DNA of 64,000 nucleotides from NCBI GenBank assembly GCA_963712855.1, contig CAVQJN010000001.1, positions 358,612 through 422,611 of the forward strand. Direction: 5' to 3'. How positions within the stretch are numbered: position 1 is the first letter of the stretch; each line of letters opens with the position of its first letter. A program made the translations under genes and the position numbers. The notes below the pieces were generated by a model, which saw only the letters and a list, made by a program, of their open reading frames with translations, was not told the origin of the DNA and did no database searches. Positions 1-2,457 of this stretch are shown here, piece by piece. Origin of the DNA: Thermoanaerobaculia bacterium. GTDB taxonomy: Bacteria; Acidobacteriota; Thermoanaerobaculia; Multivoradales; JAGPDF01.

Positions 1-240
1 GAAGGTGCGGGCCCCGCCGAGCGAGGCGCCGATGCAGACCGCCATCGCGCTGTGCTCGCTCTCCACCCGGGTCATGTGCCCCTTCTCGATCTCCTCGCCG
101 CACAAGCGCTCGATGCACTCGGTCTGCGGGGTGATCGGATAGACGCCGCCGCCGAAGCCGCGGCCCGAAACGGTTGGCACGGCCGGCCAGGGTGGCAGCC
201 GCCGCGGCGGCGTGATTGGCGCTGATCAGTTGGCTTGCCA
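1..240 (-). CDS. 2-oxoacid:ferredoxin oxidoreductase alpha subunit (PorA/KorA-like), N-terminal fragment; gene continues past window start; apparent frame change near 150-175
   Basis: Minus-strand translation from ATG at 240 reads MASQLISANHAAAAAATLAGRANRFG, then in a second frame FGGGVYPITPQTECIERLCGEEIEKGHMTRVESEHSAMAVCIGASLGGARTF. This matches canonical PorA N-terminal motifs (GNEAAA..AG.RFFAGYPITP..E, ESE.AA...IGAS.AG.R). The start overlaps the stop of the upstream ferredoxin domain at 226-228. Confidence 0.55.
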
Positions 241-2457
241 TTCCTCGACCATCTCCATGGCGCTGCGCGGACACTCGACCACGCAGATGCCGCAGCCCTT
301 GCAGTAGGTGTAGTCGACGTCGTAGTCGACGGTGTCGTCGGAACTGTGGCGGCGGATGATGCCTTCGGGGCAGTAGACGAGGCAGGTGTCGCAGCGCGTG
401 CAGCTGCCGCACGAGAAGCACCTCGCCGCCTCGCGGTAGTCGGGTAATCCGAGGCTCACCTCGGTGAAGGCGTGGATCCGCTCTTCGGCCGGCCAGACGC
501 GGTCCGTCGGCGGGCGGGCGGCGCTCGAAGTGATCGAAGCGGATGTCGGTCGCCGGAACGGCCGTTCGACGATCCGGGCGAGTGAACACCTCGACCTCCT
601 CGCCCAGCTCCGCCAGAACGCGATCGGCGGCGCGCCGGCCGTCGCCGATCGCGTGGGTGACGGTCCCGTCGCCGGTCGACAGGTCGCCCGCGGCGAAAAC
701 GATCAGAGGACCGGTTGCGTCGTGCATGCGCCCGTCCTCGAGCCGCCAGCCGTTCGGCAGCAGACCGAGATCGGGCGACTGCCCGAGCGCCAGCAATACC
801 CGGTCGCAGGCGAAGCGATGCAAGCGATCGCCGACCACCGGGCGCCGGCGACCGGTCTCGTCGGGCTCGCCGAGCTCGACCTCGGCGAAGCTCGACCGCG
901 GCGACGCGATCGTCGCCGAGGAAGCCGACCGGTTGTCGCAGATGGATGAACTCGATGCCCTCGCGACGCGCCTCCTCGATCTCCTCGCGGATCGCGGGCA
1001 TCTCGGCTTCGCCGCGCCGGTAGGCCACGGTGACCCAGGCGGCGCCGCCGCGCAGGGCGCTGCGCGCGCAGTCCATCGCGGTGTTGCCGCCGCCGAGCAC
1101 CAGCACGTGGCCGTCGAGCCGAGCGTCACCGTCCAGGTTGACGCGACGCAGGTAGTGGATGCCCTGCTCCACGCCGGGGAGATCGTTCCCCGGGACGTCG
1201 AGGCCGCGCAACCTTTGCAGGCCGGTGGCGAGAACCACGCCGTCGAAGTCGCCACTCGAACGCGGCCAGCCCCGCGGAGTCGAGGCGCTCGCCGAGCCGC
1301 GTCTCCACGCCCAGGGCCACGATCGCGTCGACTTCGCGGTCGAGCACCTCGCGCGGCAGCCGGTAGGTGGGGATCCCGGTGCGCAGCACGCCTCCGAGCT
1401 CACGCTCGGCGTCGAAGATCGTCGGACGGTGCCCGGCCAGAGCCAGCGTATGGGCCGCGGCGAGTCCCGCCGGGCCGCCCCCTACGATGGCGATTCGGCG
1501 CGGATGTTTCAATTGCGGAATCGGCGGCCGCGCGAGCGGGGCGTGATCTCCGATCCACCGTTCGAGCCCCCGGATGTTGACCGCGCCGTCGTACTCGGCG
1601 CGATTGCACCCCTCCATGCAGGGCGCCGGGCAGACCCGCCCGCAGACCGAAGCGAGAGGCTGGGTGTGGCGCAACACCTTGGCGCCCGCGATCTCGCCGC
1701 CGTGCGCCAGCTCCTGGATGAAGCCGAGCACGTCGTTGCCGGCCGGACACCAGACGCTGCAGGGCGGCTTCGCCTCCCGGTAGCGGGGCCGCTGACTGCG
1801 CCACGAACCGGTCTCCAGCCCCGGGGCGGCGCTCTCGGTCACATCCGCCAACGCCGGGACTTCCGCCGCCGGCGCGGCCACGCTCGCCCCGTGAGCTTCC
1901 GGCGCGGCCGTCGCGTCGTGCACCGAGACCGCGTCCCAGGCCTCCCGCGCGGCGCCCAGGTTCGAGAGCAGGCCGAGCTCGCGGTAGCTCTCCTCCAGGG
2001 CTTCGAACGGCAGATCGAGCGCGCGCGCGAAGGAGCCCGCGATGGTGGTGTTGACGATCACCACGCTACGCGTGCCGATGCCGTGACGGCGCGCGATCGC
2101 AGTGGCGTCGACCGCCGCGACCCGAAAGCCCGGGAAACGCTGCGCCAGCGTCTCGACCGGGTCCGCACTGTTGACGAGCAGCGTGCCTCCGGGCACCAGG
2201 CCGGCCACGGTCTCGGCGCCGAGCAACGTCGGGTCGAGGACCAGCAGATGGTCGGGCCGATAGACCTTGTTACGGTTGGTGATCGGCTCGTCCGAGATCC
2301 GCGTGTAGGCGCGCACCGGCGCTCCGGAGCGCTCACCGGCGTAGTCGCCGAACGTCTGGACGCTCTTGCCCAGCCGCGAGTAGAGAGCGGCCAGGATCTT
2401 GGCGCAGGTGACGCCCCCCTGACCACCGCGACCGTGGAGTCGAATTTCGATCGTCAT
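226..2457 (-). pseudogene. Fusion protein: PFOR gamma subunit (PorG-like) + GltD-like NAD(P)H-dependent oxidoreductase + C-terminal 2x[4Fe-4S] ferredoxin (delta-like); reading frame changes twice (about 1400 and about 870)
   Basis: MTIEIRLHGRGGQGGVTCAKILA (PorG N-terminus) leads into CPAPCMEGC...IAIVGGGPAGLAAAHTLALAGH (GltD-like FAD/NAD motif) in the frame of ORF 1126..2583. The continuation FDGVVLATGLQRLRGLDVPGNDLPGVEQG...VLVLGGGNTAMDCARSALRGG is in the frame of ORF 456..1403. The Cys-rich CxxCxxCxxxCP x2 domain (ORF 226..459) is back in the first frame. RBS GGGGG lies before the ATG at 2457. Confidence 0.6.

Follow-up and report, generated by a model that had tools for sequence, protein, structure and literature searches.

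A fused gamma-flavoprotein-delta gene heads a putative 2-oxoacid:NAD(P)+ oxidoreductase operon in a Thermoanaerobaculia bacterium

The DNA analyzed here is a stretch of 64,000 nucleotides from contig CAVQJN010000001.1 of a Thermoanaerobaculia bacterium (assembly GCA_963712855.1, positions 358,612 to 422,611), which in its entirety is called the window below. On the minus strand, its first 2457 bases cover the 5' part of an operon that is conserved across many bacterial phyla and composed of three genes, a fused gene, porA and porB, the products of which belong to the 2-oxoacid:acceptor oxidoreductases. The fused gene (226-2457, minus strand) starts at an ATG at 2457, preceded immediately on its 5' side by the Shine-Dalgarno-like sequence GGGGGA, and stops at a TGA at 228-226. 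The reading frame from this ATG opens with MTIEIRLHGRGGQGG, and after repair of the frame shifts described below it specifies a product of 741-742 amino acids, in which a PorG (gamma) module is followed by an iron-sulfur flavoprotein of the GltD/NfnB type and then by a PorD (delta) module with two [4Fe-4S] clusters. The porA gene for the alpha subunit (1-241, minus strand; POR_N domain, E 1.2e-12) is cut by the window edge after its first 80 codons, and the rest of porA as well as porB lie outside the window, beyond base 1. The porA segment is 91% identical to porA at the corresponding locus of the closest relative, L001. The ATG of porA at 241 overlaps the stop of the fused gene by 16 nucleotides (ATGGCAAGCCAACTGA, 226-241), and the conservation of this overlap in L001 (12211-12226) suggests that translation of the fused gene and porA is coupled.

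When the sequence is taken as written, the open reading frame (ORF) of the fused gene ends at a stop codon at 1128-1126, and the frame of porA is lost at codon 26. The shift sites were placed by DNA comparison with L001, and the junctions were read against five close homologues. This resulted in four single-base insertions relative to L001, three in the fused gene and one in porA, all of the +1 type and all numbered here in the order in which they are met on the minus strand. The first shift (about 1250-1262) is located between ...LAAFE and GDFDGVVLATG and leads to the stop 126 nucleotides further on if it is not repaired. The second (889-890) is an extra T, giving CTTCGCC where L001 has CTCGCC, and the third (about 505-508) is found in GCCGACGGACCGC (..RRPPA-D-[g]-DRVWPAEE..), where the DNA reads GCCGAC-G-GACCGC. 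The fourth, in porA (166-168), is seen in TTCGGGCC as compared to TTCGGCC in L001, that is, GGG versus GG. Since the three shifts in the fused gene are +1 each, this gene finishes in the frame in which it started. An earlier note on this DNA, made from the sequence alone, had reported frame changes in both genes at about 160, 870 and 1400. It was right that both genes are affected, but the number of shifts is four rather than three: the change at about 1400 was a boundary in the ORF list (the true site is at about 1250-1262), and the shift at about 505 had been missed.

Domain searches against Pfam and NCBIfam were performed with the frame-repaired product. The gamma module, also termed domain III (1927-2451, minus strand), matches POR (PF01558) over residues 11-160 with an E value of 9.5e-29 and reaches 131 bits with TIGR02175 (PorC_KorC) against a cutoff of 81; it carries the sequence HGRGGQGG (2436-2413) and has PorC (9bt4_E) and 2raa_A as matches in the PDB. 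The Fer4_20 domain (PF14691; residues 230-306, E 2e-16; 1540-1770, minus strand) contains the cysteine ligands for two [4Fe-4S] clusters in CSVWCPAGN (1761-1735) and CGRVCPAPCMEGC (1644-1606). The flavoprotein domain for binding of flavin adenine dinucleotide (FAD) and NAD(P)H (Pyr_redox_2; residues 321-606, E 1.4e-23; 638-1497, minus strand) is broken by two of the frame shifts and contains the motifs GGGPAG (1482-1465), GGGNTAMD (1094-1071) and AYRR (1025-1014). The PorD-like delta module (229-423, minus strand) holds a dicluster domain for two [4Fe-4S] clusters at residues 683-732, with the motifs CFSCGSCTRCDTCLVYCP (420-367) and CKGCGICVVECP (303-268), and scores 60.8 bits with TIGR02179 (PorD_KorD) against a cutoff of 60.05. 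NCBIfam assigns the two ends to the pyruvate/2-ketoisovalerate branch of the 2-oxoacid:acceptor oxidoreductases, as gamma and delta subunit, respectively, and by sequence they match PorC (9bt4_E) and PorD (9bt4_G) of a solved four-subunit pyruvate:ferredoxin oxidoreductase (PFOR). The ferredoxin domain and the delta subunit are one and the same, and there is no additional module.

The middle and the C-terminus together cover model positions 27-565 of 566 in NF009410/PRK12771, a model for GltD-like proteins with a C-terminal ferredoxin, at 472.6 bits, which is below the cutoff of 516. The closest solved structures for the middle module (residues 225-611) are the NADPH-binding subunits of Nfn/Stn complexes (9n5u with 8.8e-88; 4ylf_B and 5jca_L), followed by GltD (2vdc_G, 6s6s_G) and DPD, and the YRR after GGGNTAMD aligns with the same residues in the NADPH-dependent GltD (6s6s_G, 2vdc_G) and NfnB (4ylf_B). 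It is clear that the domain matches are far beyond what chance would give. The proposal of the earlier note, a fusion of a gamma subunit, a GltD-like protein and a ferredoxin domain upstream from porA, was borne out by Pfam and NCBIfam once the frames had been repaired, and the three domains by which it was to be recognized, POR, Pyr_redox_2 and Fer4_20, were all found.

With the repaired protein as query, 4138 proteins were found (E <= 1e-10). Among these matches the top 120 are all 719-784 amino acids long, share 63% to 80% identity with the query and are encoded by uninterrupted single ORFs; POR, Fer4_20 and Pyr_redox_2 are present throughout, and ferredoxin domains as well in most. In the databases such proteins go under the names "2-oxoacid:acceptor oxidoreductase family protein" or "FAD-dependent oxidoreductase". 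When one genome per species was scanned, a set of 80 loci was obtained, with carriers in Planctomycetota, Eisenbacteria, Acidobacteriota and Myxococcota (Polyangiaceae, Archangiaceae and Sandaracinaceae). Further carriers are Desulfuromonadales (Geomonas paludis, Geopsychrobacter), Rhizomicrobium electricum, Rhodocyclales and Noviherbaspirillum, and the phyla with an intact single fused ORF number at least six. Two of the intact carriers, Geomonas paludis Red736 (locus L067) and Rhizomicrobium electricum DSM 21034 (locus L072), are in culture. In tblastn a single segment spans the protein in the relatives, and the fetched loci yielded 66 full-length intact translations of about 720-785 amino acids. 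The order fused gene, porA, porB was found in 70 of the 70 loci with enough downstream DNA, and the full-length porA product of the relatives has 386 amino acids. The earlier note had called for a look at the orthologues, where three separate genes would have made the fusion suspect; what we found, in the best 120 matches as well as in the 66 locus translations, was intact single ORFs, with porA and porB directly after the fused gene in the loci. In the repaired window copy and in the intact relatives alike, gamma and delta are therefore not separate small polypeptides, as they share one ORF with the flavoprotein, and indels cannot account for the gamma-flavoprotein-delta fusion.

The cofactor motifs are equally well conserved. 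Among the 66 intact homologues the Fer4_20 cysteines C233, C237, C272, C276, C280 and C284 are invariant, and so are HGRGGQGG in the gamma module, the GxGPAG motif for FAD, the GGGNxAxD and YRR motifs, and both of the delta motifs, CFSCGxCxxCDxCxxxCP and CKGCGxCxxxCP. Beyond the usual CxxCxxCxxxCP, the first delta motif (420-367) has C679 and C682, two more cysteines that are invariant throughout the family.

Our reading of the locus, to which we would assign a probability of roughly 0.6, is that the operon encodes a self-contained 2-oxoacid:NAD(P)+ oxidoreductase, and that the window copy most likely owes its insertions to errors in the sequence record. The Fer4_20 cysteines, the FAD motif, the GGGNxAxD and YRR motifs and the ferredoxin motifs are in keeping with an enzyme that oxidizes 2-oxoacids and reduces NAD(P)+ in return, and it is from sequence that we infer both the direction of the electron flow and the preference for NADP+. 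The repaired polypeptide from the first gene combines a gamma module of the POR/VOR type with a flavoprotein (two [4Fe-4S] clusters, FAD and a site of the NADPH type) and a delta module (two [4Fe-4S] clusters), and the products of porA and porB form the catalytic core that binds thiamine pyrophosphate (TPP). Per protomer, one FAD and about five [4Fe-4S] clusters are predicted. The 2-oxoacid and coenzyme A (CoA) would react at the TPP between alpha and beta and release electrons, which would pass from the cluster in the beta subunit (PorB) to the two delta clusters, on to the two Fer4_20 clusters and finally to FAD, where NADP+ would be reduced with no need for free ferredoxin. Oxidation of a 2-oxoacid (about -500 mV) by NADP+ (-320 mV) is a downhill reaction, so that neither free ferredoxin nor bifurcation would be required.

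Coupling of a 2-oxoacid:ferredoxin oxidoreductase (OFOR) to pyridine nucleotide through an added flavoprotein has already been established for two enzymes, KGOR and Pad, and the principle has precedents, since KGOR has a GltD-homologous subunit and NCBIfam contains models for Pad, the NADH-dependent phenylglyoxylate dehydrogenase. KGOR (KorABC from Azoarcus evansii/Aromatoleum) reportedly reduces NADP+ directly and is said to be composed of a two-subunit KorAB, in which gamma is fused to alpha, and a separate flavoprotein of 63 kDa. One subunit of the Azoarcus KGOR has been placed among the GltD homologues (PMC10134865). The fused family thus resembles KGOR in having an OFOR core and a GltD-homologous iron-sulfur flavoprotein, but it differs in that its alpha and beta subunits are of the four-subunit POR/VOR type and in that gamma and delta are found at either end of the flavoprotein. 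The alpha and beta subunits of the closest relative did not show a core of the KorA/KorB type (OAFO_sf 93.6 versus 482.75, and weak matches to the 2-oxoglutarate models). Pad (PadEFGHI from Azoarcus evansii) is similar to the fused family in that a POR/VOR-like OFOR with alpha, beta, gamma and delta has received an additional FAD subunit that reduces pyridine nucleotide. Pad consists of five separate subunits and is NADH-dependent, whereas the dinucleotide site of the fused family has the YRR pattern of NADPH users, and the scores with the Pad equivalogs are far below their cutoffs (gamma with PadE 99 versus 300, alpha with PadG 247 versus 700 and beta with PadI 173 versus 700). Because the Pad cutoffs are missed widely and the alpha and beta subunits are not of the KorAB type, the fused family appears to be orthologous to neither Pad nor KGOR.

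Three other comparisons help to delimit the family. For the gamma, delta and alpha modules the best matches are those of the PorABDG/VorABDG enzymes, but in the fused family a flavoprotein of about 450 amino acids is placed between gamma and delta in one chain, and the predicted acceptor is NADP+ instead of ferredoxin. Eukaryotic PNO (Euglena, Cryptosporidium), with which the earlier note had compared the fusion while expecting a different reductase module, likewise combines an enzyme of the PFOR type with a built-in flavoprotein that reduces NADP+. In PNO the PFOR is a single chain, and the module attached to its C-terminal end, for FMN and FAD, resembles cytochrome P450 reductase; no such module and no flavodoxin or FNR domain was found in the fused family with Pfam and NCBIfam, in agreement with that expectation, and TIGR02176 matches the alpha and beta subunits of L001 only weakly. 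Finally, NfnB/Stn and GltD have the Fer4_20, FAD and NADPH motifs in common with the middle module, but their partners are NfnA, Stn subunits or GltB and not an OFOR core, and they have no N-terminal PorG module. What distinguishes the family is the gamma-flavoprotein-delta fusion on a core of the POR/VOR type, an arrangement that is abundant in the databases and is known here from sequence.

The repaired frames have suffered little, which favours errors in the record or a very recent event over a long-standing decay. The 66 intact homologues define 168 invariant columns (at least 97% conserved), and all 168 are kept in the repaired frames, including those 3' of every shift. The ratio of non-synonymous to synonymous substitution rates (dN/dS) relative to L001 is 0.16, 0.16, 0.20 and 0.25 for the four segments and 0.22 for porA, and it is 0.10-0.16 for the adjoining thiolase, MerR and FadB genes. 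A relative-rate test with four outgroups counted 40 amino acid changes unique to the window and 31 unique to L001 (chi-squared 1.1, not significant), with 20 and 15, respectively, past the first shift. With the invariants kept, the dN/dS low and the lineage not accelerated, the insertions are probably either an artefact or the mark of a very recent pseudogene. The latter explanation, by which all four insertions exist in the genome and have recently put the operon out of action, we regard as less likely, although it is by far the most serious of the alternatives. Besides the unchanged dN/dS and the unchanged lineage rate, the repaired frames contain no stop, and in a simulation of four neutral indels with 3, 5 or 10 substitutions each, the probability of sparing all invariants and creating no stop was 0.09, 0.016 and 0.0002, respectively. 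Decay of bacterial pseudogenes favours deletions, whereas four out of four events here are +1 insertions, and of the 2457 bases of the operon that the window shows, only the distal 1262 contain shifts (p = 0.07 for a uniform distribution).

Several observations nevertheless weigh against our reading. Under a uniform error rate, the probability of finding four or more shifts within 1.1 kb when there are 5-6 events in 64 kb is only 1e-4 to 3e-4; a hidden Markov model of codon usage run over the window gave about two more candidate frame shifts in the other 62 kb, and the 5 kb of flanking DNA shared with L001 (MerR, thiolase, FadB) is without shifts. Such tight clustering is what would be expected of a dead operon, in which both genes are hit while the flanking genes stay intact. 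As written, the first gene would produce a truncated protein of 443 amino acids, ending within the FAD domain after gamma and Fer4_20, and since a gene for an FAD monooxygenase (61643-63003) is frame shifted too, the genome may carry some real pseudogenes. The local GC content is ordinary, the GC of bases 1-1300 ranking about 180 among 629 windows, and a GC-driven failure of polishing is not supported as the cause of the shifts. There was also no independent assembly of the same lineage in which the bases could be checked (best match 67% among genome contigs and 66-69% among metagenomes, and none in an exact look-up of the thiolase). As to the enzyme, a literature search for the fused form gave no description or assay, with Pelobacter Pcar_1238-1240 as a possible lead. 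PorA and PorB of the closest relative score below every NCBIfam equivalog cutoff, which leaves them with no substrate assignment; their best models are PorA_Arch with 375 bits for alpha and a VorB-type beta model with 312 bits. In the three neighbourhoods inspected nothing is conserved around the operon beyond the three-gene unit, and the gene context gives no hint of the substrate, as the neighbours vary between relatives and the MerR-thiolase-FadB group is common to the closest relative only. For the insertions, a technical problem confined to this region, for instance a thin end of the contig, is a candidate cause that would reconcile the two sets of evidence, as all four shifts are within 1262 nucleotides of the window start.

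A different function of the intact enzyme is less probable still. The NfnB-like FAD could bifurcate or confurcate electrons, for example in an NADPH-driven reductive carboxylation, or the flavoprotein could merely tune a ferredoxin-dependent enzyme, and it is true that, among solved structures, the middle module comes closest to the NADPH-binding subunits of the bifurcating Nfn/Stn complexes. However, an NfnA-like second acceptor branch is neither fused to the protein nor encoded in the three-gene unit, bifurcation is unnecessary for a reaction from 2-oxoacid to NADP+ that runs downhill, and the precedent, KGOR, reportedly passes its electrons to NADP+ directly. We therefore consider such a function improbable and retain the direct reduction of NADP+ as the predicted activity.

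Two further explanations can practically be dismissed. Programmed shifting, by which ribosomal frameshifting or transcriptional slippage would carry expression past the four +1 shifts, could draw on the fact that the three shifts in the first gene add up to +3 and restore the original frame, but intact relatives need no shift at these positions, a stop follows 126 nucleotides after the first one, and the four sites have no slippery motif in common, which leaves programmed shifting as well as motif-specific miscalls without support. The notion that the fusion is an artefact of lost stops and that the three modules are truly separate genes finds its counterpart in rare split database entries but is contradicted by the intact single ORFs in at least six phyla. 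Among the few short homologues inspected, L085 (1836-4057) appears as a PorG of 216 amino acids and a protein of 537 amino acids, and in L084 (3487-6668) the fused gene is seemingly split or without its N-terminus; as the neighbouring sulfatase gene in L085 is likewise split in two and the contig of L084 has the label '3x', these genes look like frame shifts or truncations of draft assemblies. A long GC-rich gene such as the fused one may be broken up by indel errors in draft assemblies.

Outside the operon the window contains a number of other features. A small membrane protein without a Pfam family is encoded divergently from the operon (2628-3281, plus strand), and a homologue with 63% identity is found beside the operon in L001 (9241-9762), the closest relative only. 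The FAD_binding_3 monooxygenase gene mentioned above (61643-63003, minus strand) is split over two frames, with Pfam profile positions 3-263 in one and 280-346 in the other; the junction at about 62070-62085 (...EVEMIGE, then (ag), then LLELPPLASWHRG) indicates a deletion of one nucleotide, opposite in sign to the shifts in the por operon. A TetR-family regulator (about 50045-50725, plus strand) belongs to an ORF at 49933-51633 with TetR_N at residues 58-101 of the ORF and an in-frame stop only at 51633, so that the frame runs into the gene for a TonB-dependent receptor (50774-53107), which may reflect a lost stop or a frame shift near the 3' end. In an island of low GC (about 32900-35900; 56-58% as compared to 69% overall), which is non-coding according to the codon model of the window itself, there is an ORF of 699 amino acids for an NB-ARC/STAND ATPase (33721-35820), and an HNH_2 endonuclease ORF (31514-32908) adjoins the island; the latter looks horizontally acquired and is perhaps a defence locus. 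An ORF of 678 amino acids with a C-terminal AMIN domain (15451-17487, plus strand) contains a segment of about 74% GC where the codon model flips frame twice while the ORF stays open, which probably reflects low-complexity composition rather than a frame shift. No RNA family was found with Rfam in the 64-kb window.

Taken as a whole, the proposal that the window copy is intact, with the insertions as errors of the record, and that it belongs to a widespread class of POR/VOR-type 2-oxoacid:NADP+ oxidoreductases that do without ferredoxin and in which one polypeptide would serve as the electron wire, has in our judgement somewhat less than an even chance of being right in all its parts. If it is true, phyla that are largely aerobic or facultative (Planctomycetota, Myxococcota, Acidobacteriota, Eisenbacteria) would gain a route from 2-oxoacids to acyl-CoA and NADPH in which neither ferredoxin nor the lipoamide dehydrogenase complexes take part. 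For the window locus itself, a label as pseudogene or an annotation in several fragments would be premature before the four extra bases have been checked against the reads. Provided that the predicted activity is right, the family would offer a compact oxidation of 2-oxoacids with NADP+ in place of a low-potential ferredoxin, and for engineering it would be a ferredoxin-free module of three genes that generates acyl-CoA and NADPH. The family is present in many phyla from soil and water, where PFOR-type genes are routinely taken as markers of anaerobic ferredoxin metabolism or of carbon fixation by the reverse tricarboxylic acid cycle, and recognition of the fused NADP-linked form would, with the same proviso, alter such metabolic reconstructions.

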